This document shows, piece after piece, positions 8,090 through 40,212 of a DNA stretch of 64,000 nt. The notes beneath the pieces were generated by a model that worked only from the letters and a program-made list of their open reading frames with translations, was not told the origin of the DNA and made no database searches. This DNA comes from Candidatus Saccharimonadia bacterium. GTDB taxonomy: Bacteria; Patescibacteriota; Saccharimonadia; UBA4664. The position numbers and the translations under genes were made by a program. The stretch covers positions 7,020 through 71,019 of the forward strand of contig JBBRSS010000002.1 in NCBI GenBank assembly GCA_038245115.1. Direction: 5' to 3'. How positions within the stretch are numbered: the stretch's first letter is position 1; every line of letters starts with the position of its first letter.

Positions 8090-8441
8090 TATTCAATCCT
8101 ACCAGATTGTATGCCCGTATTCTGAGGTCTAATCCAAAACGCAACACTTAGTAGTGGCGGCAGGCGATACAATATCTAAACTAGCTATGAACAATAATAC
8201 GTTTCAGTCTTAGTTAACAGCAACGAATCGAGCCAAGTCTATCAATTGTATTTCGTGCCAGCACACGTTGTACGGCCTGCTCTCTGACCTAAGTGTCACG
8301 GCTAAAACGCATACGTTTGTCGCCAAACATCGAGCAACTGGCAAATCTGTTCTTCGCCTACCACGCTCGCTCCGCAGAAATTGCGCTATTATACCGCATA
8401 TGGTTAACTTGATAAGATAATTGTGTTTAGAGGAGCCAACT

Positions 8442-10046
8442 ATGTCCTTCGGAGGTGGATCAGGAAGCGGCAGTATAGTTGGCAGCTCAGATGTTGTAAT
8501 AAACACGCCGGCGAATAATGAAGTGCTGGGTTACAACTCCGGTACCGCCAAGTGGCAAAATCAGGCTAAAACGACAGGTCCATGTATTACGTGCGATCCG
8601 CGGACGCTGAAGGCGGCCGTAACGATGTTCCCGGCCGCCAACTGCACCTACTACATGAGAGTGCAAGGTGAGGTGGTCGGGGCGACCGCTTACCGTATTT
8701 GGGTTGGCACGGCATCGGGTAACATCAGTATTGCCAACTACGCCAATACTGGCGTGGGGATTAACGCCGCACCAACTGGCGCTCCGAGGGGAGCCACAGG
8801 ATCCGTAGCTTGCCCGGCAACCGGTGCCCAGCTGGTCTTCGCCAGCGGTGGTGCCTTCAACGTCGCGGAAGGGGACTGGATCGGACTATCCTGCGATAAC
8901 GCAACGGCCTCGTTTGGTTCCGGTACGGATGGTGCTCCGACGGCGCTATATGCGGGAGTATGCGCGGCGAACGACGTTTTTCCGGCCGGGACTCCTAGTG
9001 CTCCCTACACGGCCACAACCCCATTCTTTTTAGCGGCCGAGGTTGCGGTGGCGGGCAGCGGCACCGCCCCCCTCTTCACCGCGGCGATACCACCCGACGG
9101 AACCGTGGGTGTGGCGTACTCCTACCAGTTCGCCGCGTCTGGCACTACCCCGATCGCATTCACTCTCAACAGTGGGACGATCCCGGCAGGGCTAACTCTG
9201 ACTTCGGCTGGTCTGCTGTCTGGGACCCCAACGACTGCGGCCACAAGCCTCTTCACCGTGCTCGCGTCCAACGGTGTGAGCCCAGACAGGGTAAGCACAG
9301 AAAAGACCGTCATCATAGCCGCATCCGGCGGTGGTGGTGGCGGCGGTGGCAACCCGCAGTGGCTGGGTGACTACCAGACTGGCGACTTCTCGCAATGGCC
9401 AGTGCAGGAGTTCAAGGACGGCGCGACCGGCGCTGACATGGCCCGGCAGCAACAGATAGTCACCAGCCCCGCCAGAGCCGGATACCCGTACACTGCGCAG
9501 TTCAACGTCATCTCTACCGACCAGACCAGCGGCGACCCCGATCGTAACCGCTCTGAGGTGACCGATTATTCCGATGTTGCCACGCTGAACGGCGGAACCT
9601 CATGGTGGGCATGGTCGATGTATCTCCCCACCGGGTTCCATGTCGATACGGATGTGGTATCCCCTGTGGGCAACGGGTGGGTAGTCTGCACCCAGTGGCA
9701 CGGCGTGAATGGCCTGCCCCTGGTTTTCGGACTCGACAAGTCTGCCGTCCCTCACGTCATTGTCAGCACACTAGACGCCGAATGGGTAACGCCCAGCGCG
9801 CTACCTCTAGGCCAGTGGAACGACTTTGTCGTGGGCGTCACATGGTCGAATACGGCGGGACGCCTGACGGTGAGAATCAACGGCACCACCTTCATCGACA
9901 ATGCCGCCACTTCCACTCTGGAGTCTGGAGCCGACGGGATCGCCTACTTCAAGCAGGGCATCTATCGTGCCCGCTCCAACCAGGACCAGAGCATTTACTA
10001 CACTGGGACCCGCCGCGGAGCAACTGAGGCCGACGTCGCTCTCTAG
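8442..10046 (+). CDS. Secreted/structural carbohydrate-active protein: He_PIG (putative Ig) domain, Gly8 linker, PL7/alginate-lyase-like (ConA-like) C-terminal domain
   Basis: GAGGAG 6 nt before ATG 8442. 'PDGTVGVAYSYQFAASGTTPIAFTL..IPAGLTL..GLLSGTP' fits He_PIG. 'GGGGGGGG' linker. PL7-like 'RSEV', 'TQWHG' and 'YFKQGIY' motifs. Confidence 0.55.
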   Translation: MSFGGGSGSGSIVGSSDVVINTPANNEVLGYNSGTAKWQNQAKTTGPCITCDPRTLKAAVTMFPAANCTYYMRVQGEVVGATAYRIWVGTASGNISIANYANTGVGINAAPTGAPRGATGSVACPATGAQLVFASGGAFNVAEGDWIGLSCDNATASFGSGTDGAPTALYAGVCAANDVFPAGTPSAPYTATTPFFLAAEVAVAGSGTAPLFTAAIPPDGTVGVAYSYQFAASGTTPIAFTLNSGTIPAGLTLTSAGLLSGTPTTAATSLFTVLASNGVSPDRVSTEKTVIIAASGGGGGGGGNPQWLGDYQTGDFSQWPVQEFKDGATGADMARQQQIVTSPARAGYPYTAQFNVISTDQTSGDPDRNRSEVTDYSDVATLNGGTSWWAWSMYLPTGFHVDTDVVSPVGNGWVVCTQWHGVNGLPLVFGLDKSAVPHVIVSTLDAEWVTPSALPLGQWNDFVVGVTWSNTAGRLTVRINGTTFIDNAATSTLESGADGIAYFKQGIYRARSNQDQSIYYTGTRRGATEADVAL

Positions 10047-14163: not shown

Positions 14164-15672
14164 TTGTCGGACATGGTAAGGTCGCCTTCGATCAAACAAT
14201 ATATGTACAAAATCCCCGCCACAATTCAGCCCACCAAGATCACCGCCTTAGACGAGATACTAAAGGGCGGTATACCATATGGCTCCCTAGTATTAACCAC
14301 TGGTCCCGCTGGTGGCGGCAAGACAACCTTGGCCCAACAGTGGCTCTTCGAAGGCGCCAGACACCTAGAAGAAGTTGGTCTCTACATTTCGTTCACCGAA
14401 GAAATCGATAAAGCCATTCGTAATATCGAACAATTTGAATTTTTTGATAAATCCTACATAAAAACTGGCAAGATCTGCTTTATAGATGGCCGCACGCTAC
14501 TAATGGGCATGCCCTTTAAGCAAAAACCATCGTTTGATCTCATCGAAATGGACCAGCTACTGACCGTCATTATGAATTTGGTCGATCAAACTCAGGCCAA
14601 ACGCGTAGTGATAGATTCTATTACGGCCTTAATCTATAAGCTCGAAGGCGTCGACGCCGTCCGGAGCTTCATTTTTCGCCTTGGCTACGCTCTTTCCCGG
14701 CCCGGCGCCACCGTAATGCTCATTGGCGAGGCCGACCTCAACGCCGGCTATCAGTCGCCAGTAGAAGAGTATATTTCCGACGCCATCATCTATGTGGATA
14801 GTGGGTCTGGGCGCAACCAACAAATGCGCAAGCTCGAAGTCAAAAAAATGCGCGGCGTAAACTATCGCTCCGGCCCGGCCTATTTCGAAATCACCAATAA
14901 AGGTATCACCCTATACCCCAAAATTCCCACCTATGGACTAACCGCTTTAACCGACTTCAAAACCCGCCGCAAAACTGGCATCAAAAAGCTCGACGAAATG
15001 ATGGGCGGCGGGATCCCTCAAGGTCACATCCTACTAGTCGCTGGCAACACCGGCTCCGGCCGAACAACACTCGGCATGCACTTTCTGGAAGCCGGTATCC
15101 TTCAGGGTGAAGCCGGATTATTTGTATCTATCGACGAATCTATGACCCAAATCATCAAAACTGCCAAAGAACACGACTGGGACTTCGACAGGCACCTCAA
15201 AGATAAAATGCTGATCAACGTTCCCAGCGACCAAATTGATATTTATCCCGACAAGCTGCTTTATCAAATTGTCCGCGCTGTCGAAGACAACAACATCAAG
15301 CGAGTCGTAATAGACTCAATTTCCTCTATGGAGTCAAGCGAGTTTGCACGAGATTACGTGCGTGACTTCCTGCTGCAGTTAACAGCCTTCTTTAAAAGCC
15401 GCGGCATCAACTGCTTGGCAACCTACCTGACCACCGAGATGTTCGGCGCGCCCAACAAACAGTTGATGGGCGGCACCGTATCATCGGAACTGCAACTCAG
15501 CTCAATTGTCGACGGCATTATCCTCACTCGTTACGTGGAGCGCGACCAAGAAGTTCGCAAACTGGTCAGTATTCTCAAAATGCGCGGCTCAAACCACGAT
15601 AAGGGGATATATGAGTTCAGCATTGGTAAGGCGGGACTGATTTTGGGTAACCAGTTTAAAGATGACTTATGA
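14164..15672 (+). CDS. KaiC-like double RecA-fold ATPase
   Basis: Two RecA/KaiC modules. Walker A 'GPAGGGKTTLAQQ' in domain 1 and 'GNTGSGRTTLGMH' in domain 2 (K to R). The start is uncertain (TTG 14164, ATG 14173 or ATG 14203). Confidence 0.8.
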   Translation: MSDMVRSPSIKQYMYKIPATIQPTKITALDEILKGGIPYGSLVLTTGPAGGGKTTLAQQWLFEGARHLEEVGLYISFTEEIDKAIRNIEQFEFFDKSYIKTGKICFIDGRTLLMGMPFKQKPSFDLIEMDQLLTVIMNLVDQTQAKRVVIDSITALIYKLEGVDAVRSFIFRLGYALSRPGATVMLIGEADLNAGYQSPVEEYISDAIIYVDSGSGRNQQMRKLEVKKMRGVNYRSGPAYFEITNKGITLYPKIPTYGLTALTDFKTRRKTGIKKLDEMMGGGIPQGHILLVAGNTGSGRTTLGMHFLEAGILQGEAGLFVSIDESMTQIIKTAKEHDWDFDRHLKDKMLINVPSDQIDIYPDKLLYQIVRAVEDNNIKRVVIDSISSMESSEFARDYVRDFLLQLTAFFKSRGINCLATYLTTEMFGAPNKQLMGGTVSSELQLSSIVDGIILTRYVERDQEVRKLVSILKMRGSNHDKGIYEFSIGKAGLILGNQFKDDL

Positions 15673-16016
15673 GCATAAACCAGCCTCCAGAGCCCCCGAA
15701 GCAAGAAGATGATCAACTCGCAGTGATCCGCCGTGAAATCAATATTCGCAGTTACGGCATTATCAAAGGGATCATGGGCGGCCGCATTGTTGATTCGTTA
15801 CCACTCAGACTAAGGTGCGAATGCACTATGCCTATCTGTGAAGAAAACATTGAGGTTAGCCTAGCTAAGCGTCGCGAGCTGCGGCGAAATTATCCACACG
15901 GATTTATTGTTGTACCACTACACGCCAAATCCGCCCAAGATACTACGTTGTGCAAGACAAATGAATTCAAGGTAATAGAAAAACTAAATTTTACCGATGC
16001 GGTCACCGATCTGTAA
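15669..16016 (+). CDS. Hypothetical small protein, translationally coupled to the KaiC-like gene
   Basis: ATGA start/stop overlap with the upstream gene; contains 'CEC..C' cysteines. Confidence 0.45.
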   Translation: MSINQPPEPPKQEDDQLAVIRREINIRSYGIIKGIMGGRIVDSLPLRLRCECTMPICEENIEVSLAKRRELRRNYPHGFIVVPLHAKSAQDTTLCKTNEFKVIEKLNFTDAVTDL

Positions 16017-16097
16017 TCAATAATTGCATTTTCTCCACCGCCCCAGCCGAATAAACGGCCGAGGCGGTGGTGTTGTGACTACTCCGCGGGTATGTAC

Positions 16098-17075
16098 CTA
16101 GCAGGGCAGTCTGGACGGAAGCCGAACAGGGGTTACACCCGGGTAACGACGGCAAACCGTGCGATGCTGCACCGCCAATCCGTGTTGGGCTTGCCCCAGG
16201 AAAGTTGGGTTGAACCCATTCCAGCCCATGTGCATCAACACCGTGTCGCCTGCGCGCGCATACCTGAGTACGTAGGCGACAAGCTGAGCGGTTGTCTTGC
16301 CAAGATAGTCGCTAGTATCGACACTCGCGTCCCACTCCAGAATATGAGCTGCCGCGAATGCCCGCCGCGCGGTTGCGTTCATCTCCAGATAGGGCGGCCG
16401 GGCAAAGTTAGTTACTACGCCCGGAGCCCTAAGCTCGCGCAGAACCTGCGCATAAGTCAGCCGCGGGTAGTGAGGATGCGTGACCGAATGGTTGATCACG
16501 TACTGTCCGTGCGACCGGGCCAGAGCCGGCAAGTCGACGCCGTAGCGCGCCCTGAAACTGGTGATGCAGTTGCCCGTCGGCGCCAACACCATCCCGATGT
16601 TATGTGCTCTGGCGCTAACCAAAGCGCTCCTCAGGGACGTCAGCGACCTCGGGCAGTCGTCGTACGTGAAGATCACCCGGCTGGTGTAATTGGGCCCCTT
16701 GAGCCTGTTGTACCCGGAGGGGACAGGAGCGGCCGAGCCCCGAAGGCGCGACCATGTGAGGGCACCGATAATGCCATCGGCTACCAACACGCGAGACGCC
16801 TGGAAGCGCTTCGTCGCGGCCAGCGTGCCAGCTCCGTACTGGCCGTCTGCGCCAGCCGGACCAACACCAAAACCGTGAGCAATGAGCGCTCGTTGAGCCA
16901 CCGCCACGCAGCTACCCCTGTCACCGGGGCGAATCGTTGGCAACTTGGCCGTTGGCGTCGACACACTGCACGCCACGGTTGCCGCTTGGGCGGGAGTTGC
17001 TGCCAATGCTACTGGCGCGACCAGAGTTGCCGCAGTAGCAGATATCACCAACAAGCGTCGCATCATGATATTCAT
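16098..17075 (-). CDS. Secreted peptidoglycan-binding polysaccharide deacetylase (PG_binding_1 + NodB homology domain)
   Basis: Signal peptide 'MMRRLLVISATAATLVAPVALAATPAQA'. PG-binding 'GDRGSCVAVAQRALIAHGF..DGQYGAGTLAATKRFQ'. NodB 'VIFTYDDCP', 'DTVLMH'. Local GC is markedly higher than the neighbours. GGAAGG 6 nt before the ATG at 17075. Confidence 0.75.
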   Translation of the reverse strand: MNIMMRRLLVISATAATLVAPVALAATPAQAATVACSVSTPTAKLPTIRPGDRGSCVAVAQRALIAHGFGVGPAGADGQYGAGTLAATKRFQASRVLVADGIIGALTWSRLRGSAAPVPSGYNRLKGPNYTSRVIFTYDDCPRSLTSLRSALVSARAHNIGMVLAPTGNCITSFRARYGVDLPALARSHGQYVINHSVTHPHYPRLTYAQVLRELRAPGVVTNFARPPYLEMNATARRAFAAAHILEWDASVDTSDYLGKTTAQLVAYVLRYARAGDTVLMHMGWNGFNPTFLGQAQHGLAVQHRTVCRRYPGVTPVRLPSRLPC

Positions 17076-17229
17076 GAGCATCCTTCCGATCGTGGGCAAT
17101 TGTCTCTATACAAAAAACAATCGCCCGAAATATTGGACCACTCAAGTTTGTACCCTAGAAACAGCCGATTCATTGTAAGAACTTTCAAATATGACCGGAC
17201 TCAAAATAAAATGCTTTACATTGGCCTTT

Positions 17230-17412
17230 GAATATATATACTGCTATTACGTTAACAACTTGAGCCCCTCGTACTTGGAAGCCGGTGAGATACCGGCGCT
17301 GTGCCGCAACTGTAATGTTACCATTGAGTAATAAGCCAGGTCGTCGTACGAGATTAATCCCGAGCAGGAGTAATATTTACTTAATCGTCACCGGGTGACG
17401 ATTTTTTATCTT
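17230..17412 (+). ncRNA. Cobalamin (B12) riboswitch-like leader with terminator
   Basis: 'GGAAGCCGGUGAGAUACCGGCGCUGUGCCGCAACUGUAA' matches the conserved cobalamin-riboswitch core (GGAA..CCrGUG..A.yCyGG.GCUG..CCGCAACUGUAA). A partial B12-box 'AAGCCAGG' follows, then an intrinsic terminator immediately before the gene. Confidence 0.5.
17383..17408 (+). terminator. Intrinsic terminator (expression-platform hairpin)
   Basis: AAUCGUCAC-cgg-GUGACGAUU perfect 9-bp stem followed by UUUUUUAUC. Confidence 0.6.
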
Positions 17413-22320: not shown

Positions 22321-23247
22321 CTACTGCCGTTGGCGCCGATACAGCCAGTACAGCGCCACAACCATAAAGGCCAGCGTGCTGATTGTGATAAACGCGAACG
22401 CATGTGAACTCTGCTGGTCGGGTATGGGAACGTTGATTCCAAACAAGCTAAATATAATGGTTGGTATGGTCAACACGACAGTCAAGGAAGTTAGCAGCTC
22501 AACTCGCCGGTTCAAGTTGTTGGTCATTATGTTGGAATACGCTTCACGAATATTCATGGCCGTACGCAAGCTCGATTGGCTCGTTTCACTAAGCTGCCGC
22601 GTAGCCTGCACCAAGTCTTCAATAAGATCGCGGTCTTCCTCGTGAAAGCTCAGACCGTGCCGCCCGCCGAGCAGACTCGACAGTAGCAGGTTTGCCGGGA
22701 TTAATTCTGCCAAAAATGAACTCAAAGCATCTTCGATCACCACGAACTGCACGAAGTCCCGGTTATTAATATTCGACACGTTTAATCTCGCCCGCACGCC
22801 CCGAATCTGACGATCCAGATAATTAATGTTAACCTCGTAACTCAACACTAGGTGACGCAGCAGCAATAATAATAACTTAGCGCGTTGAGTTGTATACAGC
22901 GTCGCGATGTTCATCAATCTATCGAGCCCGGAAAGCGGTTGTCGGGAAATAGTTGCCACAAAATTTGGGCCCACCACTAGCAGCACCGGATCGGTGTCCA
23001 CCACTTCGCCTTTGCGGAATGAGTAGCGCATATACACGTACAGATTGCCTTCGTCTTCATCAATTCGCGGAATTTCATCTGGATCCAGCGCATCCGCGAG
23101 CAAGCCGGGATCCAGCCGATATTTTGTCTCAAGGAGCTTAAGCTCGTCCGCAGTTGGTGCCTCAACCACTATCAGGGAACCCGTCTTAAAAGCCTCAGCT
23201 TCTGTCGCCTTCCCATCCCGAAGGCTGCGATACAAATATTTGATCAT
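22321..23247 (-). CDS. CorA-family divalent cation transporter (GIN variant of the GMN motif)
   Basis: Cytoplasmic N-terminal domain plus two C-terminal TM helices; 'LFGINVP' sits in the GMN position. Confidence 0.7.
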   Translation of the reverse strand: MIKYLYRSLRDGKATEAEAFKTGSLIVVEAPTADELKLLETKYRLDPGLLADALDPDEIPRIDEDEGNLYVYMRYSFRKGEVVDTDPVLLVVGPNFVATISRQPLSGLDRLMNIATLYTTQRAKLLLLLLRHLVLSYEVNINYLDRQIRGVRARLNVSNINNRDFVQFVVIEDALSSFLAELIPANLLLSSLLGGRHGLSFHEEDRDLIEDLVQATRQLSETSQSSLRTAMNIREAYSNIMTNNLNRRVELLTSLTVVLTIPTIIFSLFGINVPIPDQQSSHAFAFITISTLAFMVVALYWLYRRQRQ

Positions 23248-30089: not shown

Positions 30090-30428
30090 TTACTTGCTAC
30101 TTATCATACTGGCGAGCCCTATCTGGACAATCATCAGACCCCACAAGCCCCAATACACTCTTTGGGGTAGCGATTTCTTTCGAAACGCTTCGAATAGCCC
30201 CAAAATAGCAGCGGCCAACACAATCTTCAGTACCGTCCGCCACAAGTACAAATCGTGATAATCAAGCGCTACAAGCACAAATCCGGTCAAAAACTGCGCC
30301 CGCGCGCCCATCACGGCCCAGCGCGTCGCTGTTCGCAGCTTTGAGCGCAACTGAGTCACCAGCCCCCATACAATCGCCGCCACACCCAACAAGTGCAATC
30401 CCAGAATCACTGCTCCAAATACTTCCAT
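30090..30428 (-). CDS. Hypothetical small membrane protein (3-4 TM)
   Basis: Hydrophobic helices; sits 9 nt downstream of the previous minus-strand gene. Confidence 0.4.
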   Translation of the reverse strand: MEVFGAVILGLHLLGVAAIVWGLVTQLRSKLRTATRWAVMGARAQFLTGFVLVALDYHDLYLWRTVLKIVLAAAILGLFEAFRKKSLPQRVYWGLWGLMIVQIGLASMISSK

Positions 30429-30478
30429 CTCTGTCTCCTGCTATAGATTGAATATACCGCTCATGCTAACATTTGACC

Positions 30479-30832
30479 ATGAAACAACGCCGACAGCGCC
30501 TCACGATCTGGATTGAAATCTTCATGGCCAGCCTTGTCGCCGTCAGTATGACATTCTTAGCCATCGACATCTTCGGCCATCCCAGCCCCGTTGAGAGCTT
30601 CTGGATGGAACACATCGACCTCGCAATTGCCTGCATTTTCCTGACTGAATTTATTATCCGCTTTGCCACAGCTCGCAAACCGCTCTATTTCCTCAAGGAC
30701 AACTGGTATTTATTAGTAGCCTCTATCCCGATTGCCATACCGGGGACGGAAATTTTTCGATTACTCAGGTTAGAACGCGCGCTCCGGATAATTCGCGTTT
30801 TCGATCACGCCGCCGAAGTTAGTCGCCGCTGA
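30479..30832 (+). CDS. Stand-alone voltage-sensor-domain (S1-S4) membrane protein
   Basis: Four helices. The S4-like 'RLLRLERALRIIRVF' has Arg at every third position; S2 carries an acidic 'EF' and S3 an Asp. No pore domain. ATG 30479; the track begins at TTG 30473. Confidence 0.55.
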   Translation: MKQRRQRLTIWIEIFMASLVAVSMTFLAIDIFGHPSPVESFWMEHIDLAIACIFLTEFIIRFATARKPLYFLKDNWYLLVASIPIAIPGTEIFRLLRLERALRIIRVFDHAAEVSRR

Positions 30833-32191
<1,359 letters not shown>

Positions 32192-38929: not shown

Positions 38930-39084
38930 CAATTCAATAGTCATATCAAGAGTGCAGTTAGGGATCTAGCCCGTTAACCTGCCGGCAACCCCATCCAAGG
39001 ATGGTAGGTGCTACTTCTAGCCCGCAAGGGAAGATATGTAGGCAAACCGCCTTTCTTCACTTAGCCGGGAGAAAGGTTTTTTTA
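38930..39084 (+). ncRNA. SAM-I (S-box) riboswitch with terminator, controlling metK
   Basis: 'AUAUCAAGAGUGCAGUUAGGGAUCUAGCCCGUUAACCUGCCGGCAACC...GGUGCUACUUCUAGCCCGCAAGGGAAGAU' matches the S-box core (AUCAAGAG..AGGGA..GCCC..AA.C..GCAACC). A CCUUUCU/AGAAAGG hairpin plus U7 sits immediately before the metK ATG. Confidence 0.75.
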
Positions 39085-40212
39085 ATGTCCGAATCACTAT
39101 TTACTTCCGAATCTGTCTGCGCCGGTCACCCCGATAAGGTCTGCGACCAAATCTCCGACTCCATCCTAGATGCCATCCTGGAGGACGACCCCACCGGTCG
39201 CGTGGCGGTGGAAACCGCGGTTACCAAGGACCGCATCATATTACTAGGCGAAGTCACGACGACCGCCCAGGTCGATTACAAAGAAATCGCCCGTGAGGTC
39301 GCCCGCAAACTCGGCTACACCGACCCCGCCTGGGGTTTCTCGGATCTGTCCGAAGTCCAAATGTATCTGTCGACCCAATCTCCCGAAATTGCCGCGGGAG
39401 TAGACTTGGACGGTGCCGGCGATCAAGGCATGATGTTTGGTTACGCTTGCCGCGAAACCCCGGAGCTAATGCCCTTACCAATTACGCTCGCCCACGCCCT
39501 CACCAGAGCGCTCGACGAAGCCGCCATTAGCACTTTGCCGTATCTGCGGCCAGACGGCAAAGCCCAGGTCACCGTCCGCTACCAAGACGGCCAGCCAGTC
39601 GGCGTCGAACACGTCACCATCGCCAAGCCTCATTCGCCTAAAGTTGAGCTAGATCAAGTCAAACGCGACATCATAAAACACGTTGTCATTCCAGTCCTCG
39701 CCAAATACGATTTTTCAATTGATCCCAGCAAGGTAGTAGTCAACGGCACCGGTGTCTGGCACACCCCCGGCCCGTCGATGGATGCGGGCCTCACTGGACG
39801 CAAGATTATCGTCGACAGTTACGGCGGCTATGCCAGAGTCGGTGGGGGAGCCTTCAGCGGCAAAGACCCGACCAAAGTCGACCGCTCCGGAGCCTACGCT
39901 GCCCGCTACATCGCCAAGAATATCGTTGCTGCCGGGCTTGCCGACCGCGCCGAAGTCAGCCTGGCCTACTTCATTGGCGCCAAGCAGCCCGTCATGAAAC
40001 ATATCGAGACGTTCTCAACTTCAGCCGTTTCAGACCTTAAGCTGAGTAACTTCACCAACGAGCTTATCGACACCAGCGTCAAAGGTATCGTTGAGACACT
40101 CGACCTACGCCGCCCGATTTTTGCTCGTACCGCCGCTTACGGTCATTTCGGACAGCCCGGCTACAGCTGGGAGCAAACAATTCGCGTTCCGGCCGCAGTC
40201 AGTACGAACTAG
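39085..40212 (+). CDS. metK: S-adenosylmethionine synthetase
   Basis: 'FTSESVCAGHPDKVCDQISD', 'GAGDQGMMFGYA' and 'GGGAFSGKD' motifs. Confidence 0.95.
   Translation: MSESLFTSESVCAGHPDKVCDQISDSILDAILEDDPTGRVAVETAVTKDRIILLGEVTTTAQVDYKEIAREVARKLGYTDPAWGFSDLSEVQMYLSTQSPEIAAGVDLDGAGDQGMMFGYACRETPELMPLPITLAHALTRALDEAAISTLPYLRPDGKAQVTVRYQDGQPVGVEHVTIAKPHSPKVELDQVKRDIIKHVVIPVLAKYDFSIDPSKVVVNGTGVWHTPGPSMDAGLTGRKIIVDSYGGYARVGGGAFSGKDPTKVDRSGAYAARYIAKNIVAAGLADRAEVSLAYFIGAKQPVMKHIETFSTSAVSDLKLSNFTNELIDTSVKGIVETLDLRRPIFARTAAYGHFGQPGYSWEQTIRVPAAVSTN

Follow-up and report, generated by a model that had tools for sequence, protein, structure and literature searches.

The question raised by this locus is how a gene for a cell-wall enzyme of actinobacterial type came to stand in the genome of a Saccharibacterium, and what its product does there. 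The locus lies in a 64,000-nucleotide stretch of contig JBBRSS010000002.1 from a Candidatus Saccharimonadia bacterium, which we refer to at its full length as the window. The gene runs on the minus strand (Table 1) and encodes a predicted exported protein that joins a peptidoglycan-binding module (PG_binding_1) to a polysaccharide deacetylase domain of the CE4/NodB type. An earlier note on this DNA had proposed a horizontal acquisition from high-GC Gram-positive bacteria. Our analysis makes it probable that the gene specifies an actinobacterial-type CE4 wall deacetylase which was acquired horizontally by a Saccharibacterial ancestor, has been inherited since and has been partly lost.

Table 1. 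Features of the deacetylase locus in window coordinates (a slash marks the predicted cleavage site; ORF, open reading frame; AF2, AlphaFold2)
Feature	Position	Strand	Description	Basis
Secreted PG_binding_1 + CE4/NodB deacetylase, coding sequence	16098..17075	-	325 amino acids; stop codon 16098-16100	ORF list, gene caller, Pfam, homologues
Predicted signal peptide	16983..17075	-	residues 1-31; MNIMMRR, hydrophobic core, AQA/A	read from translation
PG_binding_1 (PF01471)	16743..16916	-	residues ~54-111; conserved Cys36 and Cys56 upstream of or at its start	Pfam, PHROG, PDB
CE4/NodB catalytic domain	16101..16697	-	residues ~127-325	Pfam PF01522, profile against PDB, AF2 and Foldseek
AT-rich 5' region	17076..17211	-	Shine-Dalgarno GGAAGGA (17081-17087), 5 nt ahead of the ATG	sequence, alignments
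Segment without counterpart at the L082 syntenic site	16017..17211	.	~1.2 kb	collinearity, junction alignments
Segment deleted in L092	16047..16916 (approx.)	.	~870 bp; CCCC microhomology at both break points	blastn, translation, three-way junction alignment
Spacer between convergent stop codons	16017..16097	.	81 bp; GC-rich hairpin arms 16035-16049 and 16056-70	inverted repeat I2
Antisense ORF, not a gene	16092..17231	+	379 amino acids	codon-for-codon complementary frame
Conserved unit bounding the insert, ahead of the DUF4430 operon	17215..17403	+	promoter-like TTTACA-16-TATACT; adenosylcobalamin (AdoCbl) riboswitch 17268-17352; terminator hairpin 17383-17403	

The enolase gene of the window (30908-32191) identifies its source as a Saccharibacterium (TM7): its named matches (72-82% identity) all belong to Saccharimonadia, Saccharibacteria or Patescibacteria, while the best actinobacterial enolase among the compared loci reaches 58%. 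The deacetylase family was followed through a census of 185,579 species genomes, one per species, which gave 132 confirmed loci. Among the best 80 of these, from which the taxonomy was taken, 78 belong to Actinomycetota and two to metagenome-assembled genomes (MAGs) of Saccharibacteria. The Actinomycetota carriers among the best 80 include Kineosporia, the Intrasporangiaceae Knoellia, Ornithinibacter, Tetrasphaera and Fodinibacter, members of the Propionibacteriaceae, and the Micrococcaceae Arthrobacter, Paeniglutamicibacter and Glutamicibacter; these carriers (Micrococcales, Propionibacteriales and Kineosporia) often hold two copies per genome. The window protein is 55-58% identical to the actinobacterial copies and 54-61% identical to the two other full-length Saccharibacterial copies. 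Across 5.8 billion proteins we recovered a single orthologue cluster (P0002), against about two dozen enolase relatives at 80% identity or above.

Trees were built by neighbour joining from Kimura distances and are unrooted. Over 282 alignment columns, the three full-length Saccharibacterial copies that combine PG_binding_1 with NodB form one clade (77% bootstrap), which falls within the actinobacterial radiation, between a Kineosporia-like clade and the Micrococcaceae and LysM clades, at nodes with 68% and 77% support. With Saccharibacterial flanks, a family centred on Actinomycetota and a gene that is missing at the syntenic site of relatives, the proposed origin in high-GC Gram-positives is upheld, and we infer the corresponding direction of transfer. 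The best match of the window protein (59%) does come from the same lineage as the flanking genes, a finding that the earlier note would have counted against acquisition, but copies in this lineage are very few and the proposal is only nominally touched. In every co-culture cited, Saccharibacteria live as obligate epibionts on Actinobacteria (PMC8406219; doi 10.1101/2025.01.22.634366), so the donor phylum would also be the host phylum.

The site itself is preserved to different degrees in four relatives. In L084 (a JGI sample) the gene is kept at this site with its orientation unchanged, beside the same operon of riboswitch, DUF4430, prenyltransferase-like and DUF6580 genes; the gene is 60% identical to that of the window and its neighbours are 57%, 62% and 86% identical. 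The closest relative, L092 (ENA; 97.7% amino-acid identity in the KaiC-like neighbour and 92% in the adjoining 115-residue ORF), retains a 63-residue N-terminal stump that comprises the signal peptide and about 20 further residues, with Cys36 replaced by Tyr; the remainder has been deleted (Table 1). L082 is collinear with the window over 16 kb, and there the stop codon of the 115-residue ORF is followed within ∼10 bp by the operon promoter, with no counterpart of the ∼1.2 kb segment. L093 (ENA) is without the gene and without the whole B12 operon. The AT-rich 5' region is homologous in L084 and L092 and has no counterpart in L082. The unit that bounds the insert on the operon side is about 95% conserved with L082, L084 and L092, compared with about 68% identity for the coding regions of these relatives.

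These alignments indicate that the lineages of the window, L092 and L084 descend from an ancestor that already had the gene, which has diverged in step with its neighbours since. As L084 shares the site and its neighbours are as diverged as the gene, the acquisition put forward in the earlier note is an old one and not recent. The loss in L092 means that the gene is not needed in every setting. The segment holds this gene only, with no integrase, tRNA or convincing flanking repeats, so that the hallmarks of a mobile genomic island (an integrase or a transposase, a target tRNA and direct repeats) are not seen here. A perfect 12-mer pair was considered as a flanking repeat and rejected, since both copies fall within coding regions of the neighbours and the match is probably due to chance. 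Phage and plasmid collections contain no full-length homologue, only domain-level matches to wall-binding modules of endolysins and to generic deacetylases. The more distant relatives L085, L086 and L088 (NCBI, ENA and JGI) were tried as anchors through their KaiC module and set aside, since the module lies elsewhere and is uninformative for this site. A metagenome scan anchored on the KaiC neighbour gave 62 pattern matches, none of them confirmed, and an exact search for the riboswitch core beside the insert gave none at all, the collection evidently being without relevant samples.

The GC contrast with both neighbours, from which the earlier note had started, is real. The GC content is 0.620 at 16001-17000, compared with 0.482 and 0.496 in the 1-kb flanks and 0.540 over the whole window, and 200-bp intervals place sharp steps at about 16050 and 17050. 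With a GC of 0.620 the gene is the highest of the 55 ORFs (mean 0.540, standard deviation 0.040, z = 2.0); only 0.95% of the other 978-bp intervals reach its value, every one of them within the lyase gene (8.5-9.7 kb). The left neighbours (10.9-16 kb), with an unusually low GC of 0.46-0.49, exaggerate the contrast.

This GC island is mostly an effect of protein composition. The excess over the host mean is +0.047 at codon position 1 (z 0.86), +0.118 at position 2 (z 1.81) and +0.074 at position 3 (z 1.11). Positions 1 and 2 thus supply about 69% of it, and that part is due to the amino-acid composition. GC at the first two positions (GC1 0.61, GC2 0.555) equals that of the actinobacterial homologues (GC2 0.52-0.59). 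At the third position (GC3) the gene has 0.693, which falls within the spread of the host (0.619 ± 0.067) and far below the 0.83-0.98 of most actinobacterial homologues, and a synonymous-codon likelihood test among the ORFs of the window did not flag it. The CG-rich codons that had been taken as a sign of foreign origin therefore lose most of their weight; the exception is the complete lack of TTA, CTA and TCA codons, of which about ten are expected from host usage. Across 85 carriers the slope of gene GC against surrounding GC is only 0.43, so a family member in a 54% GC genome is expected at about 60% GC at equilibrium. The gene is richer in GC than its surroundings in seven of seven low- or mid-GC carriers, and its GC3 is above the neighbours' mean in all six low- or mid-GC loci compared and above the ORF mean in the window.

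In the history that we propose, the ancestor of a small group of Saccharibacteria would have taken up one copy from Actinomycetota, the home phylum of the family, and this copy would have become fixed between a KaiC-like module and the B12-riboswitch operon. Vertical inheritance would have followed, during which the silent sites drifted to host composition. The Ala/Arg/Gly/Pro-rich composition of the protein would have persisted, leaving the gene as a GC island, and in some lineages the gene would now be in the course of being lost again.

Applied to another assembly of this locus that had been built separately, the gene caller independently picked the ATG at 17075 and a product of 325 amino acids. 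An upstream TTG start at 17099 (a 333-residue version) was dropped, since the ATG has a Shine-Dalgarno sequence and fits the N-termini of the homologues. The leader MMRRLLVISATAATLVAPVALAATPAQAAT is found in the translation as the earlier note had quoted it. On inspection it consists of MNIMMRR, the core LLVISATAATLVAPVALAA and TPAQA/A, a layout that is also seen in the homologues, and in the AF2 model the predicted local distance difference test (pLDDT) score is 51-59 over the first 30 residues, with a folded domain thereafter. The window protein has RRLLV, the closest orthologue has KR at the arginine pair and others have SR, SW, RY or GK. A leader of the twin-arginine translocation (Tat) type is unsupported because the pair is not conserved; Sec-type cleavage at AQA/A fits better, and export is predicted to occur by the Sec route. 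The likeness to Tat or Sec leaders of high-GC Gram-positives noted earlier thus survives as a predicted export signal and finds no support as regards Tat. A lipoprotein reading of TVAC36 was also rejected: Cys36 is a conserved domain cysteine and the family consensus VR[ST]CS contains no lipobox.

Both domains named in the earlier note were recovered by Pfam, by profile comparison and in the AF2 model. PG_binding_1 scores 38.3 bits (cut-off 23), resembles the endolysin wall-binding modules of PHROG (E 1.6e-17) as well as endolysin and peptidoglycan-binding domains in the PDB, and is modelled with three helices at residues 55-66, 82-94 and 105-113. The catalytic domain, when searched as a single sequence, exceeds the Polysacc_deac_1 cut-off by little (24.7 against 23.1 bits). 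Built into a profile, 34 homologues match over 30 solved CE4 chains, with 2cc0 the best (E 1.2e-23) and SpPgdA, PdaC and Bc1960 next; the weak Pfam score therefore reflects a divergent subfamily and not a false match. The NodB region is covered by 57 homologues. The AF2 model, derived from the alignment of these 34 homologues, has a mean pLDDT of 89.5 and its best Foldseek match is again 2cc0, with a template-modelling (TM) score of 0.77 on the target. The distorted (beta/alpha) barrel that defines the NodB fold is present in the model, with a Foldseek probability of 1.00 and target-normalised TM scores of 0.66-0.77 to 2cc0, 4l1g, 6h8l and 7fbw.

All five CE4 motifs can be identified. In this enzyme family motif 1 (TFDD) supplies the catalytic base and a metal-binding Asp, motif 2 (H(S/T)xxH) two metal-binding His and motif 5 (LxH) the His that serves as catalytic acid, while motifs 3 and 4 read RxPY and DxxD(W/Y). 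Here motif 1 is TYDDCP, with Asp139 invariant and Asp140 at least 90% conserved, and it aligns with the DD of 2cc0. Motif 2 is NHSVTH (HSVTH at 196-200), motif 3 is RPPY (226-229) and motif 5 is LMH (280-282); among the 34 homologues His196 and His200, Arg226, Pro227 and Pro228, and Leu280 and His282 are invariant. Motif 4, DTSDY (253-257, Asp253 to Asp256), is present as well. Six family-conserved cysteines are all kept (Cys36, Cys56 and, in the catalytic domain, 141, 170, 308 and 325), which fits an extracytoplasmic protein. Ten of 56 highly conserved family positions are substituted in the window protein (family median one), among them G225A and G230L, which flank motif 3, and W250A, which precedes motif 4; these departures fit either a changed role or a relaxed constraint.

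In Gram-positive bacteria, CE4 peptidoglycan deacetylases de-N-acetylate N-acetylglucosamine (GlcNAc) or N-acetylmuramic acid (MurNAc) and thereby alter the sensitivity of the wall to lysozyme-type enzymes. With its intact active site, the window protein is predicted to be an exported, wall-tethered enzyme that most likely carries out extracellular peptidoglycan de-N-acetylation. A Sec-type signal peptide would be removed on export, the PG_binding_1 module would hold the protein on peptidoglycan and the metal-dependent CE4/NodB domain would deacetylate the glycan strands at GlcNAc or MurNAc. We infer peptidoglycan as the substrate from the fusion to PG_binding_1, from the LysM, SH3 or lipoprotein anchors of other family members and from the peptidoglycan deacetylases among the structural neighbours. 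As to which wall is edited, we lean slightly towards that of the epibiont itself, where the modification may protect from muramidases, its own included, over that of the host at the contact zone.

Family members are also found outside high-GC Actinomycetota. A second clade (100% bootstrap) comprises the loci L063 (1861-2706) and L089 (6001-6822) and the proteins P0036, P0037 and P0040. Its contigs are of ∼48-50% GC and share synteny, and a lipoprotein signal (a lipobox ending in GC) replaces PG_binding_1; one of the contigs is labelled as a Saccharibacteria MAG, and L089 is syntenic with the labelled one. The loci L090 (P0008) and L091 (P0009) lie on contigs of 41-50% GC, and here too the gene is richer in GC than its neighbours, GC3 included. 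LysM, SH3 or a lipoprotein signal takes the place of PG_binding_1 in other members. The LysM-type protein P0029 is labelled in NCBI as Lysobacter korlensis, a gammaproteobacterium, which may reflect mislabelling or contamination of the assembly, or else a further transfer. The closest relative of P0002 outside its own clade is P0027 (68%; L094 217-987, Logan SRR13106740), which has a GC of 0.54 and a GC3 of 0.60, while an adjoining alpha/beta-hydrolase-like gene has 0.67 and 0.82. This contrast mirrors that in the window and hints that a high-GC genome received the gene from a mid-GC donor.

Several observations weigh against the history preferred here. The GC3 and synonymous codon use of the gene are no outliers in the window. 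Tree support is modest, with key nodes at 68-77%, and an unrooted topology alone gives no direction of transfer. The absence in L082 may be a loss and not the state before insertion, given that the pairwise identities among the three relatives are almost equal. At least three clades occur on low-GC contigs (S3, the L063/L089 lipoprotein clade and P0008/P0009), so that the family has a longer record outside high-GC genomes than one transfer would imply. L002 and L063 take their taxonomy from MAG binning, while L090 and L091 are without a taxon assignment, a comparison with the other loci having given no match. On the functional side, the ten substitutions at conserved positions could mean relaxed constraint, and the solved enzyme that matches best cleaves acetylxylan esters, so peptidoglycan as the substrate stays tentative.

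Exchange between Saccharibacteria and Actinomycetota may have occurred more than once, perhaps in both directions, which we regard as a lead and not as a result. It is part of an alternative that we hold to be unlikely, although it fares best among those considered, in which the family would have passed back and forth between epibionts and hosts repeatedly, as the two or three low-GC clades, if not more, and the reverse GC contrast of L094 would suggest, and a host-derived deacetylase has been turned on the wall of the actinobacterial host. The PG_binding_1 module, having evolved on actinobacterial walls, would then dock to the host sacculus at the contact zone, and local de-N-acetylation would mark or soften the host wall for hydrolases of the epibiont, in the way of Bdellovibrio with its prey, or block host autolysins. 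Were this so, the phylogeny would point to the hosts of environmental Saccharibacteria, which would be Kineosporia-, Intrasporangiaceae-, Micrococcaceae- or Propionibacteriaceae-like.

Somewhat less probable still is that the protein, as a CE4 esterase, deacetylates a polymer other than peptidoglycan, for example acetylxylan, chitin, chito-oligosaccharides or an exopolysaccharide like poly-N-acetylglucosamine. The top match in both sequence and structure is the Streptomyces lividans acetylxylan esterase 2cc0 (27% identity), no NCBIfam equivalog reaches its cut-off for the window protein, and the window has a polysaccharide lyase and further glycan-related genes close by. Set against this are the fusion of the catalytic domain to a wall-binding module of endolysins and autolysins and the LysM, SH3 and lipoprotein anchors of the family, which are wall or envelope tethers, while the close structural matches include the proven peptidoglycan deacetylases Bc1960, PdaC, SpPgdA and Bd3279.

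That the gene is instead native to Saccharibacteria, old and much lost, with the actinobacterial copies stemming from epibiont-to-host transfers, appears improbable to us. Several family clades lie in low-GC contigs, P0027 of L094 looks like a transfer into a high-GC genome and the tree is unrooted. A native origin is, however, difficult to reconcile with the predominance of Actinomycetota from several orders among the best 80 loci, often with two copies per genome, and with only one orthologue cluster where enolase has about two dozen close relatives. It also sits uneasily with a gene that is GC-richer than its surroundings, GC3 included, in every low-GC carrier and that three relatives lack or keep only in decayed form at the syntenic site.

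A decaying passenger without current function, or a pseudoenzyme, is in our view a little less credible again. Besides the ten changed positions, which include G225A, G230L and W250A, the protein has a long branch in both trees, its closest relative L092 has already deleted the gene, and CE4 pseudoenzymes are known (BA3943, which is among the structural matches). The frame is nevertheless intact over 325 codons, the catalytic and metal-binding residues and the six cysteines are kept, the Shine-Dalgarno sequence is good and the AF2 model is confident throughout the domain.

Finally, the joining of an actinobacterial fragment into a Saccharibacterial contig by assembly or binning has a negligible probability: despite sharp GC edges at both gene ends and the metagenomic source of the contig, the arrangement recurs in the 88.9-kb NCBI contig, with the same junctions in the separately built Logan assembly and, in diverged form, in L084 and L092 from other samples, the GC3 of 0.69 is not actinobacterial, and the AT-rich 5' region with its ribosome-binding site is common to the Saccharibacterial loci.

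The long ORF antisense to the gene is an artefact, as the earlier note had judged. It occupies the complementary frame, is without any Pfam match and stays open for 379 codons because the sense gene has no TTA, CTA or TCA codons. On the other side of the stop codon, the hairpin in the spacer was not called as a terminator by the scan, and no T-tract follows it on the strand of the gene. The promoter-like site and the terminator hairpin of the conserved unit ahead of the operon come from a promoter and terminator scan, and its AdoCbl riboswitch (Rfam RF01482) scores 51.2 bits against a gathering score of 50. The operon extends to 20014 on the plus strand and encodes a DUF4430 protein, a prenyltransferase-like protein of the SCO2321 family and a DUF6580 protein; it looks like a B12-regulated uptake or binding system. 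No functional partner emerged from the gene neighbourhoods in Actinomycetota, where synteny is at genus level only.

To the left of the deacetylase gene lie a KaiC-like double-domain ATPase gene and an overlapping 115-residue ORF whose family is unassigned (14164-16016, plus strand, GC 0.46-0.49). This module stands at other genomic positions in L085, L086 and L088 and is duplicated in L088. Its named homologues outside the lineage are only archaeal (43-47%; Diapherotrites, Thermoplasmata, MSBL1 and Nanoarchaeota), apart from a Deltaproteobacteria MAG at 41%. The other GC peak of the window is a gene at 8421-10046 (plus strand; gene GC 0.608, 1-kb maximum 0.634 at 8751) for a secreted-looking He_PIG and polysaccharide-lyase protein, possibly another acquired gene. 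A gene for a CorA-type Mg2+ transporter (22321-23247, minus strand) and two small ORFs, of which one matches Ion_trans (30090-30832 for the pair), are present in the window and absent from the collinear L082; single-gene indels seem common between the two genomes. At 38940-40212 (plus strand), an S-adenosylmethionine (S-box) riboswitch (50.6 bits) lies directly ahead of the S-adenosylmethionine synthetase gene metK. The plus strand is C-rich almost throughout the 64 kb (cumulative GC skew -9.15) and carries most of the long ORFs.

Among characterized enzymes, Streptococcus pneumoniae PgdA (2c1g), Bacillus cereus Bc1960 (4l1g) and Bacillus subtilis PdaC (6h8l) share with the window protein the NodB fold, the five motifs and, as predicted for the latter, export and attachment to the wall. 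It differs from them in sequence (18-21% identity in structural alignments) and in having PG_binding_1 as its accessory domain, and its family is set apart by DDCP in place of DDGP, four conserved cysteines in the catalytic domain and a C-terminal LPC. The closest solved enzyme, the actinobacterial SlCE4 from S. lividans (2cc0; E 1.2e-23, TM 0.77), is a single catalytic domain of 192-195 residues in its structure, to which the window protein adds a peptidoglycan-binding module; the substrates of the two probably differ. Our literature search found no biochemical data for any member of the window protein's family.

A biological parallel is offered by Bdellovibrio bacteriovorus, which deacetylates prey peptidoglycan and so marks the prey wall for a deacetylation-specific lysozyme (PMC4876506, PMC7511926). 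Its enzymes Bd3279 (5jp6), which is a structural match, and Bd0468 are likewise CE4 enzymes of a bacterium living off another bacterium. Bd3279 is, however, only 19% identical, and Bdellovibrio acts inside the prey periplasm. Acquisitions by Saccharibacteria and other bacteria of the candidate phyla radiation (CPR) have been discussed before for the arginine deiminase system (PMC8764695) and for a monoderm-type type IV secretion system (doi 10.1101/2025.01.22.634366). Those cases resemble the present one in that genes of episymbiotic Patescibacteria have a phylogeny pointing to other bacteria, possibly hosts. The present case differs in concerning a single cell-wall enzyme gene, with a series of presence, remnant and absence at one locus. 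Neither this class of enzyme nor the transfer of genes into CPR bacteria is new. The specific family, its confinement to hosts and epibionts and the series of gain, retention and decay are unreported in the searchable literature, in which no paper links Saccharibacteria with a peptidoglycan deacetylase.

To our knowledge, the molecules at the epibiont-host interface and the hosts of environmental Saccharibacteria lineages are largely unknown. An actinobacterial-type wall enzyme that is kept in some epibionts and discarded in close relatives is a testable candidate for either envelope protection or host-wall remodelling, and the deacetylase phylogeny is a possible pointer to host lineages. The locus also illustrates that a sharp GC island can outlast the transfer that brought it, since amino-acid composition sustains the GC at codon positions 1 and 2 while the silent sites have already equilibrated.

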